From positions 5,831 through 69,830 of the forward strand of contig JAUIBW010000008.1 in the NCBI GenBank assembly GCA_030427585.1: a DNA stretch of 64,000 nt, read 5' to 3'. Every line of letters starts with the position of its first letter. The first letter of the stretch is position 1. The position numbers and the translations under genes are program-made. The DNA is from Bacteroidia bacterium (lineage in GTDB: Bacteria > Bacteroidota > Bacteroidia > Flavobacteriales > Flavobacteriaceae). Below the pieces are notes generated by a model that was not told where the DNA came from, searched no databases, and saw only the letters and a list, made by a program, of their open reading frames with translations. Positions 5,023-56,908 of the stretch are shown in pieces.

Positions 5023-5242
5023 ATATTTTGGTATGCTGGCCGAGGCCACAACAATTAATGAAGAATACTTACAAACCGAGGTTTGTTCGGTTTCTCAATT
5101 AGTAAAAAAACTAAAAAATCAATACCCAAAATTAGATAATGCTGATTTTAAAGTCGCAATTGACCAACAATTAGTTGACCAAAGTCATATTATTAACTCA
5201 GAAGTAGAAGTAGCTTTGTTGCCGCCATTCGCTGGTGGATAA
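5006..5242 (+). CDS. moaD: molybdopterin synthase sulfur-carrier subunit MoaD
   Basis: 78 aa ending in ...LLPPFAGG (C-terminal GG). Overlaps the mobA end by 17 nt. Confidence 0.85.
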   Translation: MQLTIKYFGMLAEATTINEEYLQTEVCSVSQLVKKLKNQYPKLDNADFKVAIDQQLVDQSHIINSEVEVALLPPFAGG

Positions 5243-9300: not shown

Positions 9301-9312
9301 TGACGAATGTCA
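9301..9312 (+). promoter_or_regulatory. FixK/FNR-like box TGACGAATGTCA upstream of the usp-cls-patatin unit
   Basis: Palindrome of the TGAY-N4-RTCA class. TATTTTTA (9336-9343) follows exactly 23 nt downstream. Confidence 0.6.
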
Positions 9313-23300: not shown

Positions 23301-23312
23301 TGATAATTATCA
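23301..23312 (-). promoter_or_regulatory. FixK/FNR-like box TGATAATTATCA
   Basis: Perfect palindrome overlapping the stop codon of the upstream usp. On the minus strand, 23 nt later comes TACATTTA. Confidence 0.6.
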
Positions 23313-24228: not shown

Positions 24229-24243
24229 TGTCTACAAAAACTC

Positions 24244-25990: not shown

Positions 25991-26002
25991 CTCTATATAA
26001 TT

Positions 26003-30466: not shown

Positions 30467-30478
30467 TGACTGATATCA
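30467..30478 (+). promoter_or_regulatory. FixK/FNR-like box TGACTGATATCA (proximal, nap region)
   Basis: 61 nt upstream of the porin ATG; a weak AATATTTA lies 23 nt downstream. Confidence 0.5.
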
Positions 30479-34377: not shown

Positions 34378-34380
34378 GTT

Positions 34381-35079: not shown

Positions 35080-35698
35080 ATATAATAACATACATATTCT
35101 AATGTATACTTTCCTTACCGTTATATTATTTTCTTGTAAACACGGAGAAGATGAATATCATAATATTACGGATAAAATAGAAGCCAAAAGTAAAAATTAT
35201 CATGGCACCTCTATTTCTTCAGAACAGTATTTAGAAGGTATAAAAACAATAGAAATTACAGAAGGAGAACACACATTCTTGATTCCTGAACGTAAAAGTG
35301 AAATCAAATCATACGCCTGTACCGAATGTCATACCAAACCATTAGAAGAATTAAAAAGTGAAAATCCTTCAAAAAAAGCACACTGGGATATTAAGCTGGC
35401 TCATGCAAACCTGAATACTATGAATTGTATTACTTGTCATAATGGTAATGATATGGATAACTTAACCAGTTTAACAGGTACAGACATTGATTTTAATAGA
35501 AGCTATACACTATGTAGTCAATGCCATAACAAACAGTTTAAAGATTGGAAAGGCGGTGCACATGGCAAAAAACTAGGAGGATGGGCTCCTCCCAGAGCAT
35601 CAATGACCTGTGTAAATTGCCATAACCCACACAAGCCAGGTTTTGAAACCAGATGGCCTGCCGGGTATAATACTCAAAAAGTAAAAGAACGAGAATAG
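35072..35698 (+). CDS. tetraheme cytochrome c lipoprotein
   Basis: Four CxxCH motifs (CTECH, CITCH, CSQCH, CVNCH). Start set at MNRYNNIHILMYTFLTVILFSC (lipobox), overlapping the napB end by 8 nt. Confidence 0.75.
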   Translation: MNRYNNIHILMYTFLTVILFSCKHGEDEYHNITDKIEAKSKNYHGTSISSEQYLEGIKTIEITEGEHTFLIPERKSEIKSYACTECHTKPLEELKSENPSKKAHWDIKLAHANLNTMNCITCHNGNDMDNLTSLTGTDIDFNRSYTLCSQCHNKQFKDWKGGAHGKKLGGWAPPRASMTCVNCHNPHKPGFETRWPAGYNTQKVKERE

Positions 35699-35742
35699 TT
35701 TAGCTATTACACTTTCATGTAATATCTCTTAATAATTTAACA

Positions 35743-36864
35743 ATGAGCGACAATACTAAAAAATGGTTTTCTCTAAACCTAAATAGCAAAAAGAAACAAA
35801 ATACAGGTTCTTGCGGTTGTGGAAAAACATCTGGTGGATGCGGCTCTCATACTAAAGATCAAATTAGTGATAAAGAATTTGATGCTGCGGTAGATGCAGC
35901 TATTGGCGACGAACGCAAAAAAGATGGTTTTGACCAAGTTTTTGATGTACAAATGGATCGCCGAACTGCTTTTAGGAAATTAACCGCTAGTCTGGTTATC
36001 GGAGCCGGAGCAATAAGCACATCTTGTAATCTGACTTCTGGAGAAGAAACCAAAGAAAAAGCACAAATCGATTGGGAAGAACAATTTAAAGGCAACTACA
36101 AATTAATGACCGATGAGGAGAAAAAAGCCACTGTAGATCGATTAGTACGTTCCTACCAGTTACGAAAAGGGAAAAATATAAATATGTCTTCTAAAAATGC
36201 CGAAAAAGATGTGCTTTTTGGATATGCATTTAATATCTCTAAGTGTCAAGGGTATATGGATTGTGTAAGTGCTTGCGTTGAAGAAAATAATCAGGATCGA
36301 AATTCGCAGATGGAGTATATTCGAATTCATGAAATGAAAGATGGGAAAGGCCTTAAGTTTGATGAAGCCGATGACAATTATTACCATGAAGTCCCGGCAG
36401 AAGGTCATTTTTATATGGGAACACAATGTTTTCATTGCGACAATCCTCCATGTGTAGAAGTTTGCCCTGTGCAAGCTACATGGCGTGAAGAAGATGGATT
36501 AGTAGTTGTAGATTATGACTGGTGCGTTGGCTGTAGGTATTGTATGGCTGCTTGCCCATATGACGGCCGACGATTTAATTGGAGTACTCCAGAAGTTCCT
36601 GAAAATGAAATTAACAAAAACCAACATTACTTAGGCAATCGTATGCGTAAAAAAGGAGTAATGGAAAAATGTACTTTCTGTGTACAGCGTTCACGAGCTG
36701 GTAAAAATCCTGCTTGTGTAGAAGCTTGCCCAACAGGAGCACGAATTTTTGGAAATTTATTAGACCCCGACAGCACAATACGATGGGTTCTCAATAATAA
36801 AAAAGTATTTAGACTAAAAGAAGATCTTGGAACAGAACCTAAGTTCTGGTATTTTATGGATTAA
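35743..36864 (+). CDS. 4Fe-4S ferredoxin-type subunit (NrfC/PsrB/ActB-like) with an internal Tat motif
   Basis: CxxCxxCxxxCP clusters (CFHCDNPPCVEVCP, CVGCRYCMAACP, CTFCVQR...CVEACP). A DRRTAFRKL Tat-like motif follows a 70-aa Cys/Gly-rich N-terminal extension. Confidence 0.8.
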   Translation: MSDNTKKWFSLNLNSKKKQNTGSCGCGKTSGGCGSHTKDQISDKEFDAAVDAAIGDERKKDGFDQVFDVQMDRRTAFRKLTASLVIGAGAISTSCNLTSGEETKEKAQIDWEEQFKGNYKLMTDEEKKATVDRLVRSYQLRKGKNINMSSKNAEKDVLFGYAFNISKCQGYMDCVSACVEENNQDRNSQMEYIRIHEMKDGKGLKFDEADDNYYHEVPAEGHFYMGTQCFHCDNPPCVEVCPVQATWREEDGLVVVDYDWCVGCRYCMAACPYDGRRFNWSTPEVPENEINKNQHYLGNRMRKKGVMEKCTFCVQRSRAGKNPACVEACPTGARIFGNLLDPDSTIRWVLNNKKVFRLKEDLGTEPKFWYFMD

Positions 36865-36894
36865 TAAAATTGCGTGAGGGATTGAAACGGCATC

Positions 36895-36942
36895 CTTTTC
36901 TGTTACTCTGATTTTGTCGAAGAATAAGAAGTAACAGAAAAG
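36895..36942 (+). other. 12-bp stem hairpin inside the FeS-nrfD intergenic spacer
   Basis: CTTTTCTGTTAC-24 nt-GTAACAGAAAAG. Confidence 0.5.
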
Positions 36943-36988
36943 ATATAGTGGAAAGCCCGACCCCGTGGGCACGCCAAAAAAACAACAC

Positions 36989-38206
36989 ATGAAACGACTT
37001 AAAGTTTTTGGAAGCTTAGTTAAAGATAGCTTAGATACTACCACTCAAGGCTCAAAAAAATACCACATCTGGATGGCATTTTTGACCTTTATTATGCTCA
37101 TTGGCATGTATTGTTATTCTTTACAAATTGAGCATGGTCTAAGTGTTACAGGAATGACCGACAGAGTAAGCTGGGGACTGTATATTTCTAATTTTACATT
37201 TCTGGTTGGTGTTGCTGCAGCTGCAGTAATGCTCGTTATGCCAACGTATGTACTAAAAGATATTGATTTTAAACAAGCTGTACTTATTGGTGAAGGACTG
37301 GCCGTTGCAGCATTGATTATGTGCTTAGCCTTTGTTGTAGCCGATATGGGTGGGCCATCTGTATTGTGGCATATGATACCGGGAATCGGAGTCTTTAATT
37401 TTCCGGCTTCAATGTTAACCTGGGATGTTATTGTACTTAACGGATATTTATTTTTAAATATCTCTATTCCGTTTTATATTTTATTCAGACGCTATCAGGG
37501 AAAAGTACCAAATCCAAAAATTTATGTCCCGGGAGCGATATTATCTGTATTTTGGGCAGTAGGTATTCATTTGGTAACTGCTTTTTTATATCAGGGATTA
37601 CAAGCTCGTCCTTTTTGGAATAATGCATTATTAGGTCCTCGATTTCTGGCATCTGCCTTTGCTGCCGGACCTGCCTTGATTATCCTTGTTTTGGCAATCA
37701 TTAGAACATTTACAGAATTTAAAATAGAAGATAAAACCATCAAAAAAATTGGTATGATCGTTACTGTTGCAGCCCAAATCAACCTGATCATGTTAGTATC
37801 TGAGTTGTTTAAAGAATTTTATGCCCCAACACATCATAGTGAAAGTGCATACTATCTATTTTTTGGGTTGCATGGTAAAACTGCATTATTACCTTGGATA
37901 TGGACAGCCATTCCTCTAAATGTTTTAGCAACTGTGCTGCTAACTTTTGGTAAGCTGCGTAACAATTTAAAGGTGTTATATTTCTGCTGTTTTATTCTTT
38001 TTATAGCCATCTGGATAGAAAAAGGATTCGGCTTGATCGTTCCCGGTTTTATTCCCGGGCCTTATGGAAAAATTTCGGAATATACGCCTACGGGAATAGA
38101 AATTGGAGTAACTCTTGGTATTTGGGCCTTAGGAGCTTTCATTTTTACTATACTTGCGAAAACTGCTATCAAGATAGAAACAGGGAAATTACAATTTAGA
38201 AAATAA
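36989..38206 (+). CDS. NrfD/PsrC-family polytopic membrane quinol-interacting subunit
   Basis: About 10 predicted TM helices. It follows the FeS subunit. ATG at 36989 is preferred over the GTG at 36965. Confidence 0.75.
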   Translation: MKRLKVFGSLVKDSLDTTTQGSKKYHIWMAFLTFIMLIGMYCYSLQIEHGLSVTGMTDRVSWGLYISNFTFLVGVAAAAVMLVMPTYVLKDIDFKQAVLIGEGLAVAALIMCLAFVVADMGGPSVLWHMIPGIGVFNFPASMLTWDVIVLNGYLFLNISIPFYILFRRYQGKVPNPKIYVPGAILSVFWAVGIHLVTAFLYQGLQARPFWNNALLGPRFLASAFAAGPALIILVLAIIRTFTEFKIEDKTIKKIGMIVTVAAQINLIMLVSELFKEFYAPTHHSESAYYLFFGLHGKTALLPWIWTAIPLNVLATVLLTFGKLRNNLKVLYFCCFILFIAIWIEKGFGLIVPGFIPGPYGKISEYTPTGIEIGVTLGIWALGAFIFTILAKTAIKIETGKLQFRK

Positions 38207-38996: not shown

Positions 38997-39008
38997 TGAT
39001 AAATGTCA
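38997..39008 (+). promoter_or_regulatory. FixK/FNR-like box TGATAAATGTCA upstream of the cco operon
   Basis: 23 nt later comes TACTTTTG (39032-39039), a perfect TAnnTTTG; 52 nt upstream of the ccoS ATG. Confidence 0.7.
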
Positions 39009-39059: not shown

Positions 39060-39254
39060 ATGGGTGTAATCTATATACTCTTAACGATTAGTATTATCGT
39101 TGCTATCGTCTTTTTTATTAGCTTCATTATATCAGTCAGAAATGGTCAGTATGATGATGTCTATACTCCTTCTGTTAGGATGCTTTTTGATGATGAACTT
39201 ATAAAGGAAAGTAAAGAAAAATCTTCGGAATCCACTAAAACTAAACAATCTTAA
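39060..39254 (+). CDS. ccoS: cbb3 oxidase maturation protein CcoS
   Basis: 64 aa, single TM, then GQYDD......R.L.DDE. Confidence 0.8.
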   Translation: MGVIYILLTISIIVAIVFFISFIISVRNGQYDDVYTPSVRMLFDDELIKESKEKSSESTKTKQS

Positions 39255-39255
39255 T

Positions 39256-41457
39256 ATGGAAATGGAACAATTCTATTACGATAATAAAATCGTAAAAAAA
39301 TTCTTATATGCCACTCTATTCTGGGGTATTGTTGGGATGTCTGTAGGCTTACTACTGGCGTTTCTATTTTTATTCCCTAATCTCACAGACGGAATCTCAT
39401 GGTTAAGCTTTGGAAGATTAAGACCATTGCATACCAATGCTGTTATTTTTGCATTTGTTGGTAATGCTATTTTTGCAGGAGTATACTACTCTACTCAACG
39501 TTTGCTAAAGACACGTATGTTTAATGATACGCTTAGTAATGTTAACTTCTGGGCATGGCAATTGATTATTGTTGGTGCGGCTATTACACTTCCGTTAGGG
39601 TATACCACTTCAAAAGAATATGCCGAGTTAGAATGGCCTTTTGATATTGCCATAGCTATTGTTTGGGTAGCCTTTGGATGGAATCTTATTGGAACCATTT
39701 TAAAAAGAAGACAACGCCATATGTATGTTGCTATATGGTTTTACCTGGCCACTTTTGTTACGGTTGCTGTGCTTCATATTTTTAATAGTCTTGAGTTACC
39801 TGTTAGTGCTTTAAAAAGTTATTCGGTATATGCAGGTGTTCAGGATGCTCTGGTACAATGGTGGTATGGCCATAATGCAGTTGCATTCTTTCTTACTACT
39901 CCTTTCTTAGGTTTGATGTATTATTTTATTCCAAAAGCAGCTAATAGACCAGTATATTCCTATCGATTATCTATTGTTCACTTTTGGTCTTTAATATTTA
40001 TCTATATCTGGGCGGGACCTCATCACCTTTTATATTCGTCTTTACCCGATTGGGCACAGAATCTTGGTGTAGCATTTTCTGTCATGCTAATTGCTCCGTC
40101 GTGGGGAGGTATGATTAATGGATTACTAACATTAAGAGGTGCCTGGGATAAGGTGCGTACCGATCCTGTATTAAAATTTATGGTAGTTGCCATTACTGGT
40201 TATGGTATGGCTACTTTTGAAGGACCAATGTTATCTCTAAAAAACGTAAACGCCATTGCGCATTTTAGTGATTGGATTATTGCACACGTGCATGTTGGTG
40301 CTTTAGCCTGGAATGGATTTTTAACCTTTGGGATGGCGTATTGGTTAATCCCAAGATTATTCAAAACCAAATTATGGTCAACAGGGTTGGCTAATGCACA
40401 TTTCTGGATTGGTACTCTGGGGATCATCATGTATGCATTACCAATGTATGTTGCCGGATTTGTACAAGCTTCTATGTGGAAACAATTTAATCCAGACGGA
40501 ACGCTTACTTATGGTAATTTCCTAGAAACTGTAAATGAAATTATCCCAATGTATTGGATGCGTGCCATAGGTGGAAGTTTATTTATCTTCGGAATGTTTA
40601 TCATGTTATACAACGTTATTAAAACTATAAAAAGTGGTAGTACTGTGACAGATGAGCTTGCAGAAGCCGCTCCACTTACCAAAGTAACTAAGCACAGAAC
40701 CGCTAAAGAAGGATATCACACCTGGCTAGAGAGAAGACCTGTAAAACTAACCATTTTTGCTACTATAGCCATCTTAATTGGAGGTATCGTACAAATAGTT
40801 CCTACTTTAATGGTAGAATCTAATATCCCTACGATTACTAGTGTAAAACCATACACCCCTCTTGAGTTAGAAGGAAGAGATATTTACATTAGAGAAAGTT
40901 GTGTATCCTGTCATTCACAGATGATCAGACCTTTCCGTAGTGAAGTAGAACGATATGGTGAATACTCTAAAGCTGGTGAATATGTCTATGACCATCCTTT
41001 CTTATGGGGAAGTAAACGTACTGGACCTGATTTAATGAGGGTTGGAGGGAAATATTCTGATAACTGGCACTTAAATCATTTTTATGATCCACAAACAACC
41101 TCATCGGGATCTATTATGCCAAGCTATAAATGGCTGATCAAAAACAAACTTGATCGTTCTCAAACCGAAGATAAAATGAATGCTATGGTCACTTTGGGTG
41201 TTCCTTATACTCCAGAAGAAATAGCCAGAGCACAACAATGGATGGACGAACAAGCAACTACAATAGAGAAAAATTTGTATACCGATCCTGATTTTGTAAA
41301 AACCTATGAAGCTGATAAAAAATATGCACAGGAAAATGGGTTAGATTTTATCGAAATGCGAGATAGAGAAGTTGTAGCCTTAATTGCCTATATCCAAAGG
41401 TTAGGAACCGATATAAAAGTTAAAAATAAAGAAACCGTAGTTCAAACTAAAGAATAA
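39256..41457 (+). CDS. ccoN: cbb3-type cytochrome c oxidase, fused subunits I and II (CcoN-CcoO)
   Basis: 12-TM heme-copper oxidase core (HFWSLIFIYIWAGPHH, AHVHVGALAWNG). C-terminal CcoO part with CVSCHSQMIRP and GPDL.RVG.KY...WH..H. Confidence 0.9.
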   Translation: MEMEQFYYDNKIVKKFLYATLFWGIVGMSVGLLLAFLFLFPNLTDGISWLSFGRLRPLHTNAVIFAFVGNAIFAGVYYSTQRLLKTRMFNDTLSNVNFWAWQLIIVGAAITLPLGYTTSKEYAELEWPFDIAIAIVWVAFGWNLIGTILKRRQRHMYVAIWFYLATFVTVAVLHIFNSLELPVSALKSYSVYAGVQDALVQWWYGHNAVAFFLTTPFLGLMYYFIPKAANRPVYSYRLSIVHFWSLIFIYIWAGPHHLLYSSLPDWAQNLGVAFSVMLIAPSWGGMINGLLTLRGAWDKVRTDPVLKFMVVAITGYGMATFEGPMLSLKNVNAIAHFSDWIIAHVHVGALAWNGFLTFGMAYWLIPRLFKTKLWSTGLANAHFWIGTLGIIMYALPMYVAGFVQASMWKQFNPDGTLTYGNFLETVNEIIPMYWMRAIGGSLFIFGMFIMLYNVIKTIKSGSTVTDELAEAAPLTKVTKHRTAKEGYHTWLERRPVKLTIFATIAILIGGIVQIVPTLMVESNIPTITSVKPYTPLELEGRDIYIRESCVSCHSQMIRPFRSEVERYGEYSKAGEYVYDHPFLWGSKRTGPDLMRVGGKYSDNWHLNHFYDPQTTSSGSIMPSYKWLIKNKLDRSQTEDKMNAMVTLGVPYTPEEIARAQQWMDEQATTIEKNLYTDPDFVKTYEADKKYAQENGLDFIEMRDREVVALIAYIQRLGTDIKVKNKETVVQTKE

Positions 41458-45599: not shown

Positions 45600-45611
45600 T
45601 GATCTGTGTCA
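45600..45611 (+). promoter_or_regulatory. FixK/FNR-like box TGATCTGTGTCA
   Basis: 58 nt upstream of the 45669 ATG. TACTTTTT follows 19 nt downstream, so the spacing is off by 4 relative to the others. Confidence 0.45.
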
Positions 45612-45668: not shown

Positions 45669-46568
45669 ATGGAAAAACATATAAATGCATTCATCGATTC
45701 ATTTGTAGGTAATGTACAATGGACCTGGAGATCAATACTATTTGAGGTTCCTTGGTACACGAATTATTTCTGGGGTCTTATTATAATATCATTAGTAGTA
45801 TGGGGATTAGAAATTGTTTTTCCGTGGAGAAAAAATCAATCCATTTTTAGAAAAGACTTTTGGCTGGATGGTTTTTATATGTTTTTTAATTTTTTCTTTT
45901 TTGCCATTGCCATAAGTGGTTTTTATAAGCTACTTGAAGTGATTTTTGCAGACATTGGGATTTCTACAAAAACATTAACTTTAATTGATATTTCCGGCCT
46001 TTCTACAGGCATTCAACTTTTATTATTTTTTATTGTACTCGACTTTGTACAATGGTTTACTCATATTTTACTTCATAAGTATCCTTTTCTATGGAAATTT
46101 CATAAAATACATCACTCTGTTAAAGAAATGGGGTTTGCAGCCCATCTAAGATATCACTGGATGGAAAACATCTTTTATAAACCTCTTAAAACTATTGGTG
46201 TAATGATTTTAGGCGGCTTTGAACCAGAGCAGGCCTACATCGTACATTTTCTAGCCATTACAATCGGTCATTTTAATCATTCGAATATAAAAATCACCTG
46301 GGGACCGTTTAAATACATTCTCAATAATCCGGTCATGCATTTATATCATCATTCTTATATATTACCTAAAGACTCTTATGGGGTTAATTTTGGGATTAGT
46401 CTAAGTCTTTGGGATTACATCTTTAAGACCAATTATATACCTGAAGATAATGGGACAATAACATTAGGGTTTCCTGGGGATGAAAAAATCCCAAAAAGTT
46501 TCATTGGTCAAATCATTTATGGCTTTAGAGTATCAAAACAGAAAAAAAATGGTTTATCACGTTTTTAA
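45669..46568 (+). CDS. fatty acid hydroxylase / sterol desaturase family membrane di-iron protein
   Basis: His boxes HILLHK, HKIHHS, HLYHHS. Confidence 0.75.
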   Translation: MEKHINAFIDSFVGNVQWTWRSILFEVPWYTNYFWGLIIISLVVWGLEIVFPWRKNQSIFRKDFWLDGFYMFFNFFFFAIAISGFYKLLEVIFADIGISTKTLTLIDISGLSTGIQLLLFFIVLDFVQWFTHILLHKYPFLWKFHKIHHSVKEMGFAAHLRYHWMENIFYKPLKTIGVMILGGFEPEQAYIVHFLAITIGHFNHSNIKITWGPFKYILNNPVMHLYHHSYILPKDSYGVNFGISLSLWDYIFKTNYIPEDNGTITLGFPGDEKIPKSFIGQIIYGFRVSKQKKNGLSRF

Positions 46569-46627: not shown

Positions 46628-47992
46628 TTAAACGGTCATCGAGAACAACATAGTCTCTGGTATTTTACGTTGTAATCTAAGGTCAAAAGCCATACAAATA
46701 TTACGAACAAAAGGTCTGCCTTTTTCTGTAACACTTATATGTGAATCATTAATTGTCAATAATTGATCTGCTTCTAATTCTTTTAAGTTCTGTAAGACCT
46801 CTGGTAGTTCTTTAAAATACATATGATCATCTTCCCATTTGGTATAAAAATGACACATCAAATTAAGAATATGTTTGCGTATAATTTGATCTTCTATGGT
46901 TAAAATATGTCCTCGATAAACGGGAATAATACTTTCTCTTACCAAATGTTGATATTCTTCTACTCCTTTTACATTTTGGGCAAAACCATACCAACTATCA
47001 CTAATTGCAGATACTCCCAAACCAATCATTGCATGTGTTTTGGAGGCTGTATATCCCATAAAATTGCGATGCAAGGTTTGATTTTCCATAGATTGGTATA
47101 ACGAATCATTTTTTAATGCAAAATGATCCATTCCAATTTCTACATAACCTACTTCTGAGAGTAACTTTTTTCCTACTTCATATTGTTTTCGTTTTTGCTC
47201 TCCTGATGGGAGATCTGATTCGTTAAAACCACGTTGCCCGTTACCTTTCTGCCATGGTACATGTGCATAACTGTAAAATGCCAGCCGATCGGGTAGTAAT
47301 TCTTTTGTTTTTAGGATTGTATGAACAACTGCTTCCTGAGTTTGAAAAGGTAACCCAAAAATGATATCATGTCCTACCGAAGTAAAGCCAATTTCTCTGG
47401 CAGTCTCTGTCACATATTTTACATTCTCAAAAGGTTGAATTCTATGAATTGCTCTCTGTACCGTTTCATTATAATCCTGAACTCCAAAACTTACTCTTCT
47501 AAAACCAACATCATACAATGCCTGCAAATGTTCTCGAGTAGTATTATTAGGGTGTCCTTCAAAACTTAATTCACAATCTTTTGCTCGTTCTACTCCCGAG
47601 AAGATACCATTAATTAAGTACTGCAAATTATCTGGTGAAAAAAACGTAGGTGTACCTCCTCCCAAATGTAACTCTTTGATTTTGGGTTTAGTCTCAAAAA
47701 TATTAAGGTACAATTGCCATTCTTTTAAGACCGTATTTATATAGGGTTCTTCTACATCATGTCGTTTTGTAATACGTTTATTACAACCACAAAAAGTACA
47801 CATACTTTCACAAAATGGCAGGTGAATATATAAACTTATCCCTTCTTCTTCATTACTTTCTACAAATGACCGTTGTATAGATGTTGTCCATTTTTTTAAT
47901 GAAAAAGTATTGATATCCCAATAAGGAACAGTAGGGTAACTTGTGTATCGAGGTCCCGGAATATTATATTTATGAATTAAATTTGTGCACAT
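46628..47992 (-). CDS. hemN: oxygen-independent coproporphyrinogen III oxidase (radical SAM)
   Basis: YIHLPFCESMCTFCGC, HLGGGTP, GF.R.S.GVQD; 454 aa. Confidence 0.9.
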   Translation of the reverse strand: MCTNLIHKYNIPGPRYTSYPTVPYWDINTFSLKKWTTSIQRSFVESNEEEGISLYIHLPFCESMCTFCGCNKRITKRHDVEEPYINTVLKEWQLYLNIFETKPKIKELHLGGGTPTFFSPDNLQYLINGIFSGVERAKDCELSFEGHPNNTTREHLQALYDVGFRRVSFGVQDYNETVQRAIHRIQPFENVKYVTETAREIGFTSVGHDIIFGLPFQTQEAVVHTILKTKELLPDRLAFYSYAHVPWQKGNGQRGFNESDLPSGEQKRKQYEVGKKLLSEVGYVEIGMDHFALKNDSLYQSMENQTLHRNFMGYTASKTHAMIGLGVSAISDSWYGFAQNVKGVEEYQHLVRESIIPVYRGHILTIEDQIIRKHILNLMCHFYTKWEDDHMYFKELPEVLQNLKELEADQLLTINDSHISVTEKGRPFVRNICMAFDLRLQRKIPETMLFSMTV

Positions 47993-48092: not shown

Positions 48093-48929
48093 TCACTCAT
48101 GCAACACCAAAAAGGGAATAGTAATGTGATAACTTATTTTTTCGACTGTAGGATGAAATAAAATACGCTGGAAGAAATTAAGGTTTTTGGCAACCATAGT
48201 AATCATATCAATATCCCTGCTTTCAACAAAACATTGTATAGCTTCTTCGATATTGGGATTAGAAAGGAAGTGAAAACTATGCTCTATTGTGTCAATAGAA
48301 TCATCTAAAAAATCTTTATTTTTTCTTTGTCTATCGCTTAATTCTTGTTCTTTTTTAGCAACATGCAAAACCCGTAAAGCAGCTTCATTTAAAGTAAGAG
48401 TATCCATGATTGTATTCAATACTCTGCTTTTATATAACATATTATAATCTGTGGGAAATGCAATTTCTTTAGGTTTGGTATAGATGGCTTTTTCGGGTAT
48501 TACCAAAACAGGGCACTTAACTTTTGTGATCACATCTCCTGTATTGCTACCTATGGTTTTTTCCTTAATCCCCGAAGCTCCTTTGGTTCCCATAACAATA
48601 AAATCAATATTCTTTTCCTTAACCTGTTTTCTAATCGCATCTACAAAAAAGATATATTCATTAATTTTGAAGAAGCTATGTTTTGTATTTAAAGGTAGCT
48701 TCTCTATTCTTTTAAGCAATAATTGCATTTGCTCTGTATCGCTTTGGGTACTTTTTTCTAAGACTGTTTCTTTTGAACCATAAAATGAATCTCTTCCTAT
48801 CATTTCTTCAAAGGGAGAGACATGTAACAAATAAAAGTTACATTTCACCCTTTTAAAAAATGACAATGCATATGCAACAGCATTCCACGAATTTTCAGAA
48901 AAATCTGTAGGGATCAGGATGTTTTTCAT
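48093..48929 (-). CDS. universal stress protein, tandem Usp domains
   Basis: ILIPTDFSENSWNAVAYALSFF, VMGTKGASGIKEKTIGSNT. Confidence 0.85.
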   Translation of the reverse strand: MKNILIPTDFSENSWNAVAYALSFFKRVKCNFYLLHVSPFEEMIGRDSFYGSKETVLEKSTQSDTEQMQLLLKRIEKLPLNTKHSFFKINEYIFFVDAIRKQVKEKNIDFIVMGTKGASGIKEKTIGSNTGDVITKVKCPVLVIPEKAIYTKPKEIAFPTDYNMLYKSRVLNTIMDTLTLNEAALRVLHVAKKEQELSDRQRKNKDFLDDSIDTIEHSFHFLSNPNIEEAIQCFVESRDIDMITMVAKNLNFFQRILFHPTVEKISYHITIPFLVLHE

Positions 48930-48981
48930 TTTAAATACTTTCTAATACAACAAATGTATTAGGATGTACTCATGAAAAATA

Positions 48982-48993
48982 TGACAAAAATCA
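48982..48993 (-). promoter_or_regulatory. FixK/FNR-like box TGACAAAAATCA
   Basis: On the minus strand, 23 nt later comes TACATTTG, a perfect TAnnTTTG. Confidence 0.65.
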
Positions 48994-49013: not shown

Positions 49014-50078
49014 TTATTCTACCAACTGAAGACCAGGCAAATCCAAAATTTTTATATTACGGCCTTCGATTTCAATCAGTCCATCTTTTTTAAAACTAGA
49101 TAGTGTACGTATCAGGCTTTCTGTTGCGATCCCAGCGACACTTGCCAAATCATTTCTGGATATTTTTATGCTATCCATAGGTTTTTTGTCTAATATGTTA
49201 GCAAATTGAAGTATGGTTTGAGCTGTTTTTTTACGTACCGAACTATAGGCCATTTGTAATAATTGCTCTTTAATTTCAGAAAGGTTACCAGCAAGCAGTT
49301 CCATTAATTCGAGGGAAATATTCTTACTTTTTTCTAGAATCTCTTTCAAATTATTTTTTGATATTCCTGCTAATTCTAAGTCTTCAACTGCTGTTGCCGA
49401 TTCTAGATATGGTGTATTATCTATAAACGAAGTAAACCCCAGGAAATCATCGGTTTTGTATAAATTGGTAATCAGTTCTTTACCATTCTCATCCATTTTA
49501 TGACTTTTCACAACTCCTTTTAGGATAAGATATATGTTATTAGAATGCTCTCCTTCTTCATAGATTACTTCTCCCTTTTTAAATTTGGAAATCACACCAT
49601 GATCATCAAAAAAATTCTTAAGCTCATGTAAATTCCTAAGTCCACTATCTTCAGAAGTGTTTATTGCTGAAGCAGAAAATTCTTGATCTTTAACAACTTT
49701 AGAGAGTAAGGCTGCTTTTGCAAGACGACTTTCGATTGCACTCAATAATTCATCTTCTTCAAAAGGTTTGGTTAGATAATCATCAGCTCCCAAGTCCATT
49801 CCTTTTCGAATCTCTTTATGTTCCGTTTTTGCAGATAAAAATATAAAAGGGATATGGTTGGTCGCCGTATCGCAGGATAGTGCTTCCAGTACTCCATATC
49901 CATCAACCTCGGGCATCATAATATCACAAACAATAATATCTGGTTTTTCTTCTTTGGCTTTAACGATGCCTACTTTTCCGTTTGGAGATGTGATTACTTT
50001 ATAATCTGAAAGCTCTAATAGTTCTGCAGTATTTTCTCTAAGTGCTGTGTCATCTTCAATTAAAAGAATAGTTTTCAT
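49014..50078 (-). CDS. hybrid response regulator: REC domain fused to Crp/Fnr-type cNMP-binding-like and HTH domains
   Basis: REC: ILLIEDD, IIVCDIMMPEVDG, FLSAKT. C-terminal: effector barrel (GEVIYEEGEHSNNIYLILKGVVK) and HTH ISRNDLASVAGIATESLIRTLSSFKKDGLI. Confidence 0.85.
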   Translation of the reverse strand: MKTILLIEDDTALRENTAELLELSDYKVITSPNGKVGIVKAKEEKPDIIVCDIMMPEVDGYGVLEALSCDTATNHIPFIFLSAKTEHKEIRKGMDLGADDYLTKPFEEDELLSAIESRLAKAALLSKVVKDQEFSASAINTSEDSGLRNLHELKNFFDDHGVISKFKKGEVIYEEGEHSNNIYLILKGVVKSHKMDENGKELITNLYKTDDFLGFTSFIDNTPYLESATAVEDLELAGISKNNLKEILEKSKNISLELMELLAGNLSEIKEQLLQMAYSSVRKKTAQTILQFANILDKKPMDSIKISRNDLASVAGIATESLIRTLSSFKKDGLIEIEGRNIKILDLPGLQLVE

Positions 50079-51310
50079 GATTCGTGGGTATTGGTTGTAG
50101 GTATAGTAACTGTAAATGTAGATCCTTGATTTTCCTTACTTGTAAAAGTAATACTCCCACCTAGGTTTTCCAAATGGGTTTTCACAATATTCAACCCAAT
50201 ACCTGTTCCTTGATCTAATAAGGCATTTTCTGCCCTAAAATATCGTTTAAAAATAAAATCTTGTTCTTTTTTAGGAATACCAATACCTTGATCAATAATC
50301 TTAAATGTAAGGATATTATCTTCGAAACATACCTGCAAATCAATTACTGTATGTTCTCCAGAATATTTGATGGCATTATTAATTAAATTTGTAAGTACGA
50401 GTTCTAAAATCTTTTCATCAAATTCTATAACATAATCATCGATATCTTTGGGGTAATTTATTCTTTGCCCGTCTTTTAGTAACATATTAGCATCATACAC
50501 CACTTCATTAACAACCTTACTAAGTGGAAACTGGCTATATTTATAAGTTACTTTTCCTGTTTCGAGACGTTCGATAGATAAAAAATCATTTAAGATATTA
50601 TCCAGATATTTCACTTTGTTTTTTATAGTATCGAGATGTTTTTCTCTTTTTCCTTGTTGTTCTGTTTTGGTATATTTTCCTGCAAGAGTGGCTGAAGTAA
50701 GAATACCACTTAATGGTGTTTTAAACTCATGAGAGACAAGTGAAAGGAATTTTGTTTTTAGCTCACTTAAATCTCTTTCTTTTTTTAAAGATTCTTTAGT
50801 TTGAGCTTCGGCTTCCATACGAAGTTTTACTTCTTCTTTTAATTCTTGTATGGTATGATGCAGTTCTTCTGTACGTTCTTCTATTTTTTGCTCTAGTTTA
50901 GCATTTAAATCTTGTATTTGCTGTTCTTGTTGTTTTCGAAGTGTAATATCGATAATAAGGGCCATTACATAATTACTACCATAAATTGTAAATGGGTTTA
51001 AGCCTGCTTCTACCGGAAACACAGAGCCGTCTTTTCGTATCCCAAAAAGATCTCGTCCTGCTCCCATATGTCGTTTTTCACTATACGCTACAAAACCATC
51101 AAAATGCTTTTTGTGACCATGATGGTATTTTTTTGGTATCAACGTATTAAGATGTTTTCCTACTAACTCATTTGTATCATAGCCAAAAATAGTATTAGCA
51201 GATCCATTAGTTGCTACTATTGTTTGTTTTTCGTTCACTACAATGATACCTTCTGAAATGGCCTCAGAAAGTAATTTGAAAATGTTATTGTCTTTTTCGA
51301 AAACTTTCAT
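50075..51310 (-). CDS. PAS-domain sensor histidine kinase (FixL-like PAS, tentative)
   Basis: PAS, coiled coil, HisKA (LVSHEFKTPLS) and HATPase (NLINNAIKY, DQGIGI, GTGIGL). ATGA overlap with the regulator gene. Confidence 0.85.
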   Translation of the reverse strand: MKVFEKDNNIFKLLSEAISEGIIVVNEKQTIVATNGSANTIFGYDTNELVGKHLNTLIPKKYHHGHKKHFDGFVAYSEKRHMGAGRDLFGIRKDGSVFPVEAGLNPFTIYGSNYVMALIIDITLRKQQEQQIQDLNAKLEQKIEERTEELHHTIQELKEEVKLRMEAEAQTKESLKKERDLSELKTKFLSLVSHEFKTPLSGILTSATLAGKYTKTEQQGKREKHLDTIKNKVKYLDNILNDFLSIERLETGKVTYKYSQFPLSKVVNEVVYDANMLLKDGQRINYPKDIDDYVIEFDEKILELVLTNLINNAIKYSGEHTVIDLQVCFEDNILTFKIIDQGIGIPKKEQDFIFKRYFRAENALLDQGTGIGLNIVKTHLENLGGSITFTSKENQGSTFTVTIPTTNTHES

Positions 51311-51346
51311 GTTTCAAAAGTAATCATTTTGATTTGTTACCAGAAC

Positions 51347-51358
51347 TGATTTATATCA
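51347..51358. promoter_or_regulatory. FixK/FNR-like box TGATTTATATCA in the divergent region between the kinase operon and the TerB-like/cbpA operon
   Basis: On the minus strand, TACTTTTG (51315-51322) follows after 24 nt. On the plus strand, TAAATTTA follows after 23 nt. Confidence 0.55.
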
Positions 51359-51417
51359 TAAAAAATATGAGTCAATCTAATTAAATTTATATTCATTAAC
51401 CGATAATTTTTTATGAT

Positions 51418-51825
51418 ATGAATACGACTCAAAACATAGGGATTATATTTTATCAAAATCTAGGCAAGCTATTCTATGCAATTGCTGCGTCGGATAAGAT
51501 AGTTCGTAAATCAGAATATGATTCATTACGAAAAATCGTGAAAAAAGAATGGGCAAAAGTAGATGAAATTGAAGATGAGTTTGGAGCCGATGCTTCTTTT
51601 CAAATTGAGATTGTTTTTGACTGGCTTGATTATGAAGAGTTGAGCGCAGAAGAATGTTTTATTCAATTCGAAACCTTTTATAAAGAACATAAATCTCATT
51701 TTACAGAACGATTAAAGCAGTTGATCTGGATCACAGCCAATACTATTGCAGGTGCATTTTCTGGTAAAAACAAATCCGAATTAATGATGCTCGGGCGATT
51801 GAAATTAATTTTTAAAAAACAGTAA
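51418..51825 (+). CDS. TerB/DjlA-N-like domain protein (tentative)
   Basis: 135 aa helical protein with LFYAIAASDK.V...E; precedes cbpA. Confidence 0.35.
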   Translation: MNTTQNIGIIFYQNLGKLFYAIAASDKIVRKSEYDSLRKIVKKEWAKVDEIEDEFGADASFQIEIVFDWLDYEELSAEECFIQFETFYKEHKSHFTERLKQLIWITANTIAGAFSGKNKSELMMLGRLKLIFKKQ

Positions 51826-51842
51826 CTAATTTTGGTTAGCAT

Positions 51843-52727
51843 ATGGAGTTTATTGATTACTATAAAATATTAGGGGTTTCAAAAACTGCTTCAGATAGTG
51901 ATATAAAAAAGTCATATAGAAAATTGGCTAGAAAATATCATCCCGATTTAAATCCTAATGATAAAGAGGCAGAAAGAAAATTCAAAGAAATTAATGAGGC
52001 CAATGAAGTACTAAGTAATCCCGAAAACCGAAAAAAATACGATCAATATGGTAAAGACTGGAAACATGCTGAAGAGTTTGAAAAAGCTAAACAATCACAA
52101 CATCAATACAAAAATACAGGGCAACAGCATTACAGAAATTATTCTGAAAGTGATTTCTCAGATTTTTTTGAATCAATGTTTGGAGGTTCCGGAAGAAGTA
52201 CAGCATATGGTAGAACCCGATACAGAGGGGAAGACTACAATGCCGAACTACATCTTAATTTAATGGATGTCTATAAAGCCCACAAAAGAACACTAACAAT
52301 TAATAAAAAAAATATTCGGATCACAATCCCTGCTGGGGTTGAGAACGGACAAACCATAAAAATCAAAAACCATGGAGGCTCAGGAACTCAAGGTGGACCT
52401 AATGGCGACTTATATATCACTTTTGTTATCGAAAACAAAACCCCTTTTAGACGTAATAAAAGTGACCTTTATCTACATGTTGATATTGATCTATATACAG
52501 CAGTGTTAGGAGGTGAAATTATGATTGAAACTTTAGACGGAAAGGTAAAAATAAATGTAAAACCTGAAACTCAGAATGGTACCAAAATAAAACTAAAAGG
52601 GAAAGGGTTTCCTGTATATAAAAAAGAAGGTCAATTTGGAGATCTTTTTGTTACATATACTATCAAGATTCCAAAAAACCTGTCTGAACAACAAAAAGAA
52701 CTATTTAGAACATTATCCAAGCTTTAA
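51843..52727 (+). CDS. cbpA: J-domain co-chaperone, CbpA type (no zinc-finger region)
   Basis: [34 protein letters not shown]. The C-terminal DnaJ_C repeats are present and the CxxCxGxG region is absent. Confidence 0.85.
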
Positions 52728-52737
52728 ATGTATTATA

Positions 52738-53031
52738 ATGACTAAAGGACATCTTATACCAGTATTAGAATTTTGTAAACGCCATGAGATAGAATTCTCT
52801 TTCATAAACTCATTACATGAGTTTGGATTAATTGAAATTATTACGATCCGGAAAACTGCATTTTTAAACTCTGATGAATTGCCCAGGCTCGAACAAATTA
52901 TAGTATTCAATAAAGAATTAGAAATTAATCTTGAAGGTGTTGAAGTCATCATGCGTTTGCTAGAACGAGTTCATCAAATTCAAAATGAAATGAATATGCT
53001 TAAAAATAAATTAGGGCTATACGAAAATTAG
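52738..53031 (+). CDS. CbpM-like chaperone modulator (MerR-like fold)
   Basis: 97 aa immediately after cbpA. Start moved from the track start 52636 (which overlaps cbpA) to the ATG at 52738. Confidence 0.55.
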   Translation: MTKGHLIPVLEFCKRHEIEFSFINSLHEFGLIEIITIRKTAFLNSDELPRLEQIIVFNKELEINLEGVEVIMRLLERVHQIQNEMNMLKNKLGLYEN

Positions 53032-53168: not shown

Positions 53169-53180
53169 TGATCAATATCA
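53169..53180 (+). promoter_or_regulatory. FixK/FNR-like box TGATCAATATCA
   Basis: 23 nt later comes TATTTTTA; 52 nt upstream of the 53232 ATG. Confidence 0.6.
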
Positions 53181-53231: not shown

Positions 53232-54119
53232 ATGAAAACTCTTATCACTTGTATCGTTTTTTTAAGTTTCATCGCTTGTAAAAAACAAAAGCCTATTCAA
53301 AAATCATCAGAGCAAAAAGAAACCGAACAACAACATATAGAACAAAAAGCAGAAGATACTGTATCTGTTTTCTCTGAAGAAGGCCTAGAGCTAAATCAGG
53401 AAAAAACAAAAGCCATAAAAAGAGAACGATTAATCACTGCCAAAGATGATAAAACCCAATTACAAGAGCTGGTAGTTTCTAAAAGCTTCTTAAAAGAAGA
53501 AGATCTTTATGTTTTAGATTATCAATACCCGTACTTAAATGAGAAAATTGATCCTTTATACTCGGTATTTAATGATTTTATTTCAGAAAACTATCTGAAC
53601 ATTGAAAAAACCGAAAATCAAATTCTTGAAGACAAAGAGTTACTTTGTGATACCTTAAAAATTAATAGGTTTAGAGATAAAAGAATTATTGATTATAAAA
53701 TCTATAGTGTGAAAAGTGATCGTATAAGTGTTGTACTTTACAAAGAGAATTATTATTCTGGAATGCTATATTCTACATATCTCTTTGATTGTATAAACTT
53801 TGATCTTAAGAAACATAATTTCATTTATTTTGATGATTTCTTTGAAACTGGAACAGAAGAAGAAGTGTTTACTACTATAAATACAATTATAAAAAATGGT
53901 ATTAGTTCTGGAGAATTGTATCATGACTGTTGGGAGCTTTCAAAAGGAGATTTTAAAGCTTACAAAAATAATTTTGTGGTAAATGATGATACAGTAGAAT
54001 TTTATTTTGATGATTGTGTTATTTGTCCTTCGTATACAGGAACATATTCTATAGAAATCCCCATTAGAGACATAATGCATCTTATCAAAAAATATAATGA
54101 CCGCCCGATAGTAAGTTAA
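53232..54119 (+). CDS. hypothetical lipoprotein (possibly DUF3298/DUF4163-like)
   Basis: FLSFIAC lipobox. The domain guess rests only on the YQYPYL... pattern. Confidence 0.4.
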   Translation: MKTLITCIVFLSFIACKKQKPIQKSSEQKETEQQHIEQKAEDTVSVFSEEGLELNQEKTKAIKRERLITAKDDKTQLQELVVSKSFLKEEDLYVLDYQYPYLNEKIDPLYSVFNDFISENYLNIEKTENQILEDKELLCDTLKINRFRDKRIIDYKIYSVKSDRISVVLYKENYYSGMLYSTYLFDCINFDLKKHNFIYFDDFFETGTEEEVFTTINTIIKNGISSGELYHDCWELSKGDFKAYKNNFVVNDDTVEFYFDDCVICPSYTGTYSIEIPIRDIMHLIKKYNDRPIVS

Positions 54120-56004: not shown

Positions 56005-56844
56005 TTAAATTTTAAATGTAATCACAGGCTTGTTTGCATGATTTGCAATATCCTCGCCTATACTTCCATTAAAGAAATGTGCCAAACCACGACGACCATG
56101 GGTCGGAATCGCAATGATATCTGCATTAATCTTTTTACTATAATTAAAAACCCCACTTTCTACACTATAGTCATTAAAGTAAGTTACCTTATCATACGTA
56201 TCTAGATTGCCAGAGTCTGCTTTAAAAAGAAATTCTCTTACTCGTTCTTCTATTTGATCCGAACTTCTAAATTGTTCTCCTGGTAAATTAACATATAACA
56301 AATGTATATTTGCATCTAGATCGTTAAATAATTTCATTGCATTATGATATGCTTTAATATTTTCTATCTTAAAATCACAAGCAAATACAACTTCTTTTAA
56401 AGCAAAGTTATCTACAGGGTTCTTTATAACCAACACGGGGATATCTGATGTGCGTACTACTTTTTCTGTGTTTGACCCTATAAATACTTCTTCTCGCAAA
56501 CCACTAATACCATGGGATCCCATAACGATAAGGTCTGCATCATTTTCGTGAGCAACTTCATTAATTTCACTAAAAATCTTATAGTTTTGTACCGTCTCTG
56601 TAATTTTAATACCTTTTAGGTATTCTTTATCAAGAAAAGTACTAAACCTTTTTTCGGCAAGTTTCATATAATACATTGCTTCATTCGCCTCCTGAGTTTC
56701 ATTTTTAATTAATACGGCTTCAGACAATCCCAGCATATGCAATACTATGATTTCAGCATTTTGTTGTTTAGCTAATAGTGCTGCAACCTGTAATGCGTAT
56801 TCTGAATATTCTGAAAAGTCTACGGGTACAAGAATTTTTTTCAT
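56005..56844 (-). CDS. universal stress protein, tandem Usp domains
   Basis: ILVPVDFSEYSEYALQVAALLA, VMGSHGISGLREEVFIGSNT, second half PTHGRRGLAHFFNGSI. Confidence 0.85.
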   Translation of the reverse strand: MKKILVPVDFSEYSEYALQVAALLAKQQNAEIIVLHMLGLSEAVLIKNETQEANEAMYYMKLAEKRFSTFLDKEYLKGIKITETVQNYKIFSEINEVAHENDADLIVMGSHGISGLREEVFIGSNTEKVVRTSDIPVLVIKNPVDNFALKEVVFACDFKIENIKAYHNAMKLFNDLDANIHLLYVNLPGEQFRSSDQIEERVREFLFKADSGNLDTYDKVTYFNDYSVESGVFNYSKKINADIIAIPTHGRRGLAHFFNGSIGEDIANHANKPVITFKI

Positions 56845-56896: not shown

Positions 56897-56908
56897 TGAT
56901 AATTATCA
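56897..56908 (-). promoter_or_regulatory. FixK/FNR-like box TGATAATTATCA
   Basis: On the minus strand, 23 nt later comes TAATTTTG, a perfect TAnnTTTG. Confidence 0.65.

Follow-up and report, generated by a model that had tools for sequence, protein, structure and literature searches.

A stretch of 64,000 nucleotides from a Bacteroidia bacterium (contig JAUIBW010000008.1, called here the window) contains two adjacent open reading frames (ORFs) on its reverse strand, which together encode what we think is probably a two-component hypoxia switch. The first one (50075..51310) codes for a sensor histidine kinase of 411 amino acids with PAS, HisKA and HATPase domains, as assigned from its ORF, its Pfam matches and synteny. 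The second one (49014..50078) codes for a response regulator of 354 amino acids, in which a receiver (REC) domain and a flexible linker precede a complete Crp/Fnr module. According to this proposal, the kinase would sense O2 by means of a heme-PAS domain, and the REC-Crp protein would be a class II activator of promoters that carry a characteristic palindromic box. Judged from its domains, the pair would be a form of heme-based two-component O2 sensing that unites response regulator and Crp/Fnr-type activator in one protein, and a one-step path from a heme sensor to a Crp-type activator seems to us the best reading of it.

The kinase stop and the regulator start share the four letters ATGA (50075..50078, reverse strand; cgaatcATGAaaact in the sequence), as had been noticed in a sequence-only reading of this DNA that preceded the present analysis. 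The overlap is consistent with a single operon, and translational coupling is likely. For comparison, a set of 80 related loci from many Flavobacteriaceae genera was used, amounting to 1.54 Mb in total; residue conservation was taken from 78 orthologs for the kinase columns and from 81 sequences for the regulator columns. In most of the related loci the kinase ends somewhere between 4 nucleotides (nt) inside the regulator start and a few nt before it, and in 78 of the 80, across many genera, it stands directly upstream of the regulator. As for the other two, L055 is too short to judge and L045 holds an orphan regulator. The host is a marine Aquimarina (Flavobacteriaceae) and not a Flavobacterium, the genus proposed earlier, and the regulator of the window shares 95% identity with the A. 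megaterium protein. Orthologs with 67–95% identity are present in at least 544 GTDB species genomes, from genera that include Aquimarina, Altibacter, Dokdonia, Arenibacter, Maribacter, Aequorivita, Nonlabens, Zunongwangia, Salegentibacter and Mesonia. An exhaustive search at E≤1e-30 gave a family of 1,449 clusters (50% identity), the best 150 of which are mostly ~350 amino acids long and align end to end. Across genera, the most constant unit is formed by a gene for a 135-amino-acid protein, a box, the kinase-regulator pair, a second box and a universal stress protein (usp) gene.

The sensor domain of the kinase is the part that links it to known O2 sensors. Pfam places PAS at residues 14–122 (5.5e-14), HisKA at 185–252 (1.2e-12) and HATPase_c at 298–406 (3.3e-24), all of them, like the matches of the regulator, well over the curated cutoffs and in agreement with the domains and coordinates given by the sequence-only reading. 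The N-terminus shows no hydrophobic segment by reading and the PAS domain begins at residue ~14, so the kinase would be soluble. When residues 1–145 were searched as a single sequence with phmmer against all PDB sequences, R. meliloti FixL (RmFixL, 1d06) came first (6e-15), followed by B. japonicum FixL (BjFixL, 1e-11) and E. coli DosP/EcDOS. A profile built from 28 orthologous PAS domains and searched against PDB gave RmFixL at 2.6e-21, DosP at 8e-21, EcDOS at 7e-18, BjFixL at 8e-17 and the chain 10jx at 5e-15; the next class, that of the LOV photoreceptors, started at 1.3e-10, leaving a gap of five orders below the heme-PAS group. Since 10jx is also titled "heme binding PAS domain", as seen via Foldseek, the 14 top PDB matches of the profile are all heme-PAS domains. 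The similarity to solved heme-PAS domains is thus significant and clearly above that to other PAS classes. In the AlphaFold (AF2) model of the domain the beta-sheet is confident, with a predicted local distance difference test (pLDDT) score of 75.8 for the model, and its best Foldseek match is the FixL structure 8js5 at a template-modelling (TM) score of 0.80, with DosP also at the top. Profile and structure comparison, which were among the checks suggested beforehand, both put FixL first.

The two ligand residues expected of a heme-PAS domain are conserved as well. The HMMER alignment to RmFixL and BjFixL is ungapped, just as in the sequence-only reading, and it sets His66 (codon 51113-51115) on the proximal heme ligand (H200 in BjFixL, H194 in RmFixL, H77 in DosP) and Arg86 on the distal Arg of the GxGR motif that contacts O2 (R220 in BjFixL, R97 in DosP). 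His66 is found in 100% of the 78 orthologs and Arg86 in 94%. Two further residues are present in 100% of them: Arg80, at the position of the heme-propionate contact H214 of BjFixL, where RmFixL also has Arg, and Met82, at the position of the FixL Ile and of Glu93 of DosP. Met82 was considered as a DosP-like distal heme ligand and discarded, given that Met95 of DosP aligns to the variable position 84 and not to 82; for this reason the predicted heme pocket looks FixL-like rather than DosP-like. DosP thus resembles the kinase in its profile score and in the equivalence of its His77 and Arg97 to His66 and Arg86, and differs from it in its distal Met95 and in its output, which is a cyclic di-GMP phosphodiesterase. 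Profile and ligand residues together support the assignment of the sensor (residues 14–122, 50945..51271, reverse strand) to the FixL/DosP heme-PAS group, with heme binding as a prediction.

The likeness to FixL ends with the sensor module. The HisKA and HATPase_c transmitter (50093..50758, reverse strand) is of a generic HK853/WalK type according to Pfam and to its PDB matches, namely 7z8n, 4u7n, HK853 and VicK, and the FixL kinase core (PDB chain 4gcz) was not among its matches at E≤1e-8. The putative phospho-acceptor His194 (codon 50729-50731) and the surrounding SHEFKTPL box are invariant in the orthologs. We therefore keep the earlier description of the protein as FixL-like for its sensor domain and drop it for the transmitter; as a FixL ortholog the kinase was rejected, considering both the HK853/WalK/VicK-type transmitter and the partner, whose output is Crp and not NarL/LuxR. 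Longer versions of the kinase also exist. In many genera the protein has ~500 amino acids, with an additional N-terminal region of ~90–110 amino acids that gives more PAS matches in Pfam, a two-PAS arrangement like that of BjFixL (L010, L012, L013, L020, L024, L027–L029, L041, L043 and L044, among others, and also P0165, P0175 and P0177); in such loci the box lies just upstream of the longer ORF. The kinase of L081 (L081:4361-5983, 540 amino acids) has its second PAS domain between the sensor and the DHp domain, and keeps His66, Arg80 and Met82.

The regulator has the receiver fold and the acidic pocket of a response regulator. Pfam recognizes Response_reg at residues 4–116 (1.8e-27), cNMP_binding at 165–250 (9e-20) and HTH_Crp_2 at 286–351 (4.2e-13), in accordance with the earlier proposal of a REC domain fused to a full Crp/Fnr barrel and a helix-turn-helix (HTH), and not of a FixJ/NarL-type protein. 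In the REC domain (49731..50069, reverse strand), defined by its invariant pocket, Pfam and NCBIfam, the phospho-acceptor pocket is intact, with Asp9, Asp10, Asp52 (codon 49923-49925), Ser82 and Lys104 all invariant. Its NCBIfam scores are 1.3e-25 for PhoB versus 5e-17 for FixJ, the latter far below its cutoff; by this measure the domain is nearest to PhoB/OmpR-type receivers and less near to FixJ. The AF2 model of the regulator has pLDDT values of 85–96 over residues 1–80. An extended α5 is followed by a poorly conserved linker (residues ~122–149, 49632..49715, reverse strand), delimited from the conservation profile and AF2, which is predicted to be disordered, with pLDDT below 50 at residues 131–149. 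The packing between domains is undefined in the model because its predicted TM score is low, 0.54, and PDB holds no chain that spans both the REC and the Crp halves of the protein.

The Crp/Fnr module (49026..49586, reverse strand), supported by Pfam, PDB and predicted secondary structure, comprises a beta-barrel (residues 165–250), a long C-helix (266–295) and a winged HTH (286–351, with the helical HTH predicted at 308–331). It aligns end to end with GlxR, CRP, FNR and FixK2, so that its membership of the Crp/Fnr family is clear. The PDB matches (GlxR 5.6e-18, CAP ~1e-15, FNR 1e-11, FixK2 6e-11, DNR 1e-9) place it closer to GlxR/CRP than to FNR or FixK2, and it is not specifically FixK-like. 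Residues for the signals of its better-known relatives are missing. In E. coli CRP the phosphate of cyclic AMP (cAMP) is bound by Glu72 and Arg82-Ser83, and here the Glu and the Arg are both replaced (GFTS…PYLESA, compared with GELS…PRTSSA in GlxR; YLES vs RTSS), and the Cys cluster of the [4Fe-4S] center of FNR is absent, the only Cys residues of the regulator being C51 and C69, both within REC. The recognition helix GIATESLIRTL, with Glu320 and Arg324, is invariant in the 81 sequences. Such a Glu and such an Arg are the contacts of FNR and CRP to the TGA core of their sites, and Ser212 of FNR makes a contact related to the outer T of the FNR box; the equivalent of this Ser is here Ile323. 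From its domain composition, the protein is a genuine response regulator whose output is a whole Crp/Fnr module.

A palindrome compatible with this helix is abundant around the pair. In the window, the motif TGAY-N4-RTCA occurs 18 times versus 4.9 expected, and not one of 100 shuffles attained 18; 15 of these 18 boxes are intergenic, mostly 30–85 nt before gene starts. The related loci contain 459 intergenic and 115 coding copies, that is, 2.65 versus 0.084 per kb, a 32-fold difference. The enrichment is confined to the N4 spacing, with intergenic counts for N1 to N8 of 18, 4, 9, 459, 13, 8, 13 and 11, and control palindromes in the same loci are flat. The consensus is (C/A)TGAY-N4-RTCA(T/G), with [AC]…[TG] flanks on 419 of the 459 intergenic copies; oriented by the gene, a position weight matrix reads aaCTGAYwwwTRTCAT, in which C (66%) or A (28%) is the usual letter of the distal flank and T (97%) that of the proximal one. 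The motif has the TGA-N6-TCA core spacing in common with FixK/FNR boxes. A literal FixK/FNR box was nevertheless discarded, since TTGAT-N4-ATCAA is not enriched in the window (13 copies versus 8.4 expected with one mismatch allowed) and TTGAY-N4-RTCAA is nearly absent from the related loci, with 3 intergenic copies versus the 459 of the core motif. The sequence-only reading had counted 16 FixK-type boxes and had proposed a helix of FNR/FixK type that reads TTGAT. The abundance of boxes and the invariant Glu and Arg were borne out; the C/A…T/G flanks, and the near lack of the outer T…A, are not those of true FixK/FNR sites.

Besides its sequence, the box has a strikingly regular position with respect to the promoter. 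The element TAnnTTTG, which is the Bacteroidota -7 element, starts exactly 23 nt past the box in 172 of the 239 cases having one, and 401 unique promoters show a -7 element with at least five of its six specified bases at this distance. The 23-nt gap is found in 82 of 82 instances (75 loci) for the usp gene downstream of the regulator, in 31 of 31 for the usp of the 26003 type, in 16 of 16 for ccoNO orthologs and in 11 of 11 for hsp20. In the genome-wide map of transcription start sites (TSS) of F. psychrophilum, the sigma-A -7 box is located between -12 and -5 (PMC9723704). Combining this Flavobacterium map with the 23-nt gap, the box would span -47 to -36 with its centre at -41.5, a location in which it takes the place of the -33 element and coincides with the position of class II Crp/Fnr activators. 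The same study provides a hint from one mapped promoter of another species, as independent support for the box. In its data on cluster C52, O2 limitation induces the cbb3 operon and hemN, with no regulator named there. A member of this cluster, THC0290_0456, encodes a PAS-domain protein of 207 amino acids; its promoter (TSS THC0290_T_0388, Table S2 of PMC9723704) reads aacaaTGATAATTATCAtg, with an exact TGATAATTATCA at -45 to -34 of the mapped TSS.

The genes that follow the boxes, named by Pfam and ORF reading, are those expected from a low-oxygen response, and their presence before cbb3, ccoI, nap, usp and hsp20 genes agrees with what had been described earlier. The cbb3 oxidase operon, with ccoS (39060-39254) and ccoNO (39256-41457), has a box at 38997..39008 followed by TACTTTTG at 23 nt. 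Two boxes (26911-26922 and 26935-26946), one per direction, separate a usp gene (26003-26851, reverse strand) from a ccoI/fixI-type P-type ATPase gene (26993-29389, forward strand), and two more (30267-30278 and 30467-30478) lie upstream of a porin gene (30539-31801) and a nap-type nitrate reductase cluster (32053-38206). The box at 5176..5187, with TAGCTTTG at 23 nt, precedes a moeB/thiF-rhodanese gene (5266-6372); molybdopterin synthesis, to which moeB belongs, is required for Nap. Stress genes are represented too. Tandem-domain usp genes are found at 48093-48929 (reverse strand), 53 nt from the box TGACAAAAATCA (48982..48993) with TACATTTG (48951-48958) at 23 nt, and at 56005-56844 (reverse strand), with a box at 56897..56908, TAATTTTG at 23 nt and orthologs in 23 loci. 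Other usp genes follow boxes at 9301..9312 (gene 9504-10343) and at 23301..23312 (gene 22392-23246, reverse strand, within a tandem usp array), which makes six usp promoters in all. The hsp20 gene (18541-18984, reverse strand) has a box at 19048-19059, and an ORF for 147 amino acids (19090-19533, reverse strand) has one at 19564-19575. The list is completed by a fatty-acid hydroxylase gene (45669-46568, forward strand), 58 nt downstream of a box at 45600..45611 with a weak -7 match in both directions, by a gene for a DUF3298-like lipoprotein (53232-54119, forward strand; box at 53169..53180, box-fronted orthologs in 16 loci), and by an operon for a 135-amino-acid protein, DnaJ and MerR_2 that diverges from the kinase. 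The gene hemN (46628-47992) adjoins the module; within the window no box precedes it, and among the 80 related loci it is fronted by one in only 1. In every genus the boxes cluster round the kinase-regulator pair and flank it. Taken as a whole, the gene content supports the view of a low-oxygen and stress regulon around the pair, with a palindrome of Crp/Fnr type as its mark.

The mechanism that we propose is as follows. The soluble kinase would hold heme in its FixL/DosP-type PAS domain, with His66 as proximal ligand and Arg86 as distal contact of O2, and O2 binding would keep it off, as in FixL. A fall in O2 would lead to autophosphorylation of His194 and to transfer of the phosphate to Asp52 of the co-transcribed regulator. 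The tethered N-terminal REC domain would then be the input of a Crp/Fnr factor, in place of the cAMP of CRP or the Fe-S cluster of FNR, and its phosphorylation would probably drive or stabilize dimerisation through the PhoB-like REC and the C-helix of the Crp module. Bound to (C/A)TGAY-N4-RTCA(T/G) about 41.5 bp upstream of the TSS, the dimer would activate sigma-A promoters in class II fashion. The predicted regulon, with about 15 promoters in the window, comprises ccoS-ccoNO, ccoI, Nap, moeB, the tandem-domain Usp proteins, Hsp20 and the 135-amino-acid/DnaJ/MerR_2 operon. Domains and operon, the family of the PAS domain with its ligand residues, the phospho-acceptor pocket and the motif with its constant promoter distance are seen directly in the sequences, and all of them recur across genera; we infer heme binding, O2 as the ligand and the sign of its effect, phosphotransfer, dimerisation and the regulator as the box binder. 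Several observations, given below with the alternatives, weigh against parts of this scheme.

The alternative that survives best, which we regard as rather unlikely, keeps the same wiring with a signal other than O2: the heme, or another cofactor, could report nitric oxide (NO), carbon monoxide (CO), redox state or heme/iron, or the kinase could be controlled in some other way with no cofactor at all. FixL/DosP-type hemes bind NO and CO too. As the sequence-only reading had remarked, the propionate-binding Arg206 of BjFixL lacks a counterpart in the kinase; the position is Gly72 here and variable among orthologs. The distal Arg, conserved in most orthologs, is replaced by Met in the L081 kinase (MGIGMDL), which may reflect a different ligand chemistry. 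The AF2 model has low confidence at residues 61–85, the Fα/FG region that would cradle the heme, and Foldseek barely separates heme-PAS from LOV domains, which match with nearly equal E-values; we therefore set Foldseek aside as a discriminator of cofactors, as adding little beyond the sequence profile, and take the latter as the discriminating evidence. In addition, as neither the kinase core nor the REC domain resembles its counterpart in FixL or FixJ, the assignment of an O2-off, deoxy-on sign comes from regulon content only, and in the data on the F. psychrophilum hypoxia cluster C52 an induction by iron chelation is also reported (PMC9723704). On the other side of the balance, the proximal His never varies among the orthologs and the distal Arg seldom does, the solved domains that match best are O2 sensors, and the boxes precede a hypoxia-typical set of genes (cbb3 with its maturation genes, and Nap), with the O2-independent HemN beside the pair. 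Genes for NO detoxification, such as nor, hmp or hcp, are absent from the annotated ORFs of the window.

A second alternative concerns the DNA target. The boxes could be owned by another Crp/Fnr regulator, for instance an Fe-S FNR, encoded elsewhere in the genome and outside the sequence scanned, with the REC-Crp protein as a member of the regulon having other targets. We consider this improbable. The scan covered the window and the related loci, and the link between regulator and motif is an indirect one. One species, A. agarivorans, has the regulator with no adjacent kinase: in strain HQM9 (L045:9860-10001) a box (TGATATTTATCA) and a divergent hemN gene precede the regulator, and either the kinase has been relocated elsewhere or the regulator is an orphan.

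The box in front of the operon itself deserves attention in this respect. It is TGATTTATATCA (51347..51358), located in the 107-nt region between the kinase and the divergent gene 51418-51825 (forward strand), and 59 of 77 loci have a box in front of the kinase. Toward the forward strand, the -7-like TAAATTTA (51382-51389) follows after exactly 23 nt; toward the reverse strand, the gap to TACTTTTG (51315-51322) is 24 nt, and this element stops 4 nt short of the kinase ATG. The 23-nt geometry is directed toward the 135-amino-acid gene in 56 of 59 loci and toward the kinase in 1 of 60. The gap on the kinase side is thus non-canonical, 24–25 nt in the majority of genera and 12 nt in loci of the Arenibacter/Maribacter type, and the promoter looks as it would for a regulator that is a mere target of another protein. 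A TAnnTTTG element is conserved on that side 4–5 nt ahead of the ATG, so in most genera the kinase transcript would be leaderless or near-leaderless, a class that makes up only ~5% of F. psychrophilum transcripts (PMC9723704). The operon may be weakly activated, or in some lineages repressed. Autoregulation, which had been suggested from this box, is accordingly possible as far as its location goes; its canonical geometry serves the divergent gene. This gene, the first of the operon at 51418-53031 (forward strand), encodes the 135-amino-acid protein, which has no Pfam match, is the most canonical target of the box and lies beside the kinase in 65 of the 80 loci. In the window it is followed by genes for a DnaJ/CbpA-like J-protein and a MerR_2 (CbpM-like) protein, and the three may form a hypoxia-induced co-chaperone module.

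A second Crp-family gene is present in the window. This stand-alone regulator of 210 amino acids (12579-13211, forward strand) has the helix TSRVVISRLL, with Val at the position of the base-contacting Glu, and stands directly upstream of a region (13365-15829) that encodes a persulfide-dioxygenase-like protein (metallo-β-lactamase plus double rhodanese) and two sulfur-transport proteins of YeeE/YedE type. This regulator may respond to sulfur and read another DNA motif. As the owner of the boxes we judged it unlikely, considering that it lacks the Glu, sits among sulfur genes and falls outside the conserved neighbourhood.

The assignment of the boxes to the REC-Crp protein is a conclusion that we draw from five observations taken together. 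The boxes are tightly clustered at the pair in the 80 genomes, where no other Crp-family gene recurs; the motif keeps the TGA-N6-TCA core; the fusion protein keeps the TGA-reading Glu and Arg in a helix as invariant as the motif; the paralog of the window is unsuitable; and helix and motif co-vary in distant relatives. In a 45%-identical member of the family (L081), the usp-kinase-regulator order, the TESLIR helix and the boxes are all kept, whereas the orphan L082/L083, 37% identical and located next to secG/lptE, has the helix PESVSR and no boxes. The avoidance of T…A in the flanks also fits Ile323 in place of Ser212 of FNR.

The remaining alternative is that the regulator is mainly a repressor or is inactivated by phosphorylation, with a kinase active in air and a regulon de-repressed otherwise. 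It would accommodate the repressor-like box 12 nt from the -7 element on the kinase side of Arenibacter/Maribacter-type loci, and we regard it as very improbable. A fixed 23-nt gap puts the box at -41.5 in place of the -33 element, as in FNR/CRP class II activation; the -7 elements downstream of the boxes frequently deviate from the consensus, a common trait of promoters that depend on an activator; and homologous F. psychrophilum genes are induced by hypoxia in the C52 data (PMC9723704).

The proposed switch, with O2 as its signal and the REC-Crp protein as an activator, can be compared with several known systems, and in function it has parallels in FixLJ-FixK and DosST-DosR alike. One of these systems is the FixL-FixJ-FixK cascade (FixLJ-FixK2 in B. 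japonicum, FixLJ-FixK in S. meliloti), which also relies on the heme-PAS family with conserved proximal His and distal Arg, passes the signal from a kinase to a response regulator and ends in a Crp/Fnr activator that binds a palindrome with a TGA-N6-TCA core. Its regulon likewise includes cbb3 (fixNOQP/cco), ccoI/fixI, usp and hsp20-type stress genes, while here hemN is beside the pair. In contrast to that cascade, one step would replace two here, with the Crp-type factor as phospho-acceptor. The transmitter resembles HK853/WalK and the receiver resembles PhoB, while FixK2 is no nearer a relative of the Crp module than CRP is; the boxes are flanked by C/A…T/G instead of T…A; and the promoters are of the Bacteroidota -7/-33 type. 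Hence the earlier idea that FixJ and FixK have been fused in one polypeptide did not hold as a statement of origin: with a PhoB-like REC and a GlxR/CRP-like Crp module, the resemblance is one of analogy or functional convergence.

FNR of E. coli or A. fischeri shares with the regulator the DNA-binding fold, the Glu and Arg of the recognition helix, the half-site spacing and the -41.5 centre, and it also carries its sensory element N-terminal to the barrel, is presumably gated in the same way by dimerisation and serves as an aerobic-to-microaerobic switch. Unlike FNR, the regulator has no Cys cluster for a [4Fe-4S] center and has instead an N-terminal REC that would be served by a separate heme kinase; it has Ile at the equivalent of Ser212, and the outer T of TTGAT is unused. 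The DosS/DosT-DosR (DevSR) system of M. tuberculosis is similar in that a heme kinase reports hypoxia directly to one activating response regulator, and in a regulon rich in universal stress proteins, alpha-crystallin/Hsp20 and nitrate-respiration functions; its heme is bound by GAF and not by PAS, the output of DosR is of NarL/LuxR type, and motif and phylum are unrelated.

Some neighbouring genes are of interest on their own. Five consecutive paralogous genes for tandem-domain Usp proteins of 284, 282, 284, 283 and 282 amino acids occupy 22392-26851 (reverse strand), with boxes at 23301 and 26911, and more usp genes are at 9504, 48093 and 56005; this is an unusually large expansion of Usp proteins within one putative regulon. 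The usp/stress cluster includes as well a gene (21020-21856, reverse strand) for an ATP-cone joined to an Mrr_cat/Hjc-like restriction-endonuclease fold, which is near the module in 27 of the 80 loci. Around hsp20 (17488-19533, reverse strand) there are three ORFs with no Pfam match (173, 147 and 147 amino acids), whose orthologs recur in related loci.

The modules of the pair are each known and databases contain many proteins with the fused architecture, so that the system is not categorically new. A full-text literature search, in whose scope Galperin's 2006 classification of response regulators did not fall, yielded nothing published on REC-Crp regulators or on FixL-like kinases of Flavobacteriia, and a paper on the CRP/FNR meta-regulon does not cover REC fusions (PMC8510549). 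The RgzAB system of F. johnsoniae (bioRxiv 10.64898/2026.07.01.735801), which was looked at as a possible precedent, contains a GAF hybrid kinase and is unrelated. This is in line with the previous opinion that the architecture is uncharacterised in Bacteroidota; the species genomes counted above, at least 544, indicate that it is not rare. The regulator orthologs are named merely "response regulator" or "CheY-like/CRP-like" in every source, and those of the kinase "PAS domain-containing sensor histidine kinase".

Marine particles and algal blooms, where O2 gradients are steep, have the Flavobacteriaceae among their major degraders. Hypoxic induction of cbb3 and hemN has been measured in a Flavobacterium, with no regulator named in the data on that cluster (PMC9723704), and the locus described here is a testable candidate for that role, which comes with a sensor and its regulator, with a well-defined DNA motif and with a predicted regulon that is conserved in hundreds of species. 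Going one step further, we lean slightly towards regarding the REC-Crp protein as the founding example of phosphorylation-gated Crp/Fnr activators, in which REC would replace cAMP or Fe-S, and as a master hypoxia regulator of marine Flavobacteriaceae that would be fed by a heme-PAS kinase and would activate sigma-A promoters from -41.5 in replacement of the -33 element. Bolder still is the idea that the beta-barrel, which has been kept and is well conserved, binds a second small-molecule signal, which would make the protein a two-input integrator. If the proposal is true, REC phosphorylation would join cAMP, Fe-S, heme and 2-oxoglutarate among the inputs of the Crp/Fnr family, and the little-known -7/-33 promoters of Bacteroidota would gain a clean case of activator-dependent transcription. 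Moreover, a function would be provided for thousands of database entries that are at present named only "response regulator" or "PAS domain-containing sensor histidine kinase".

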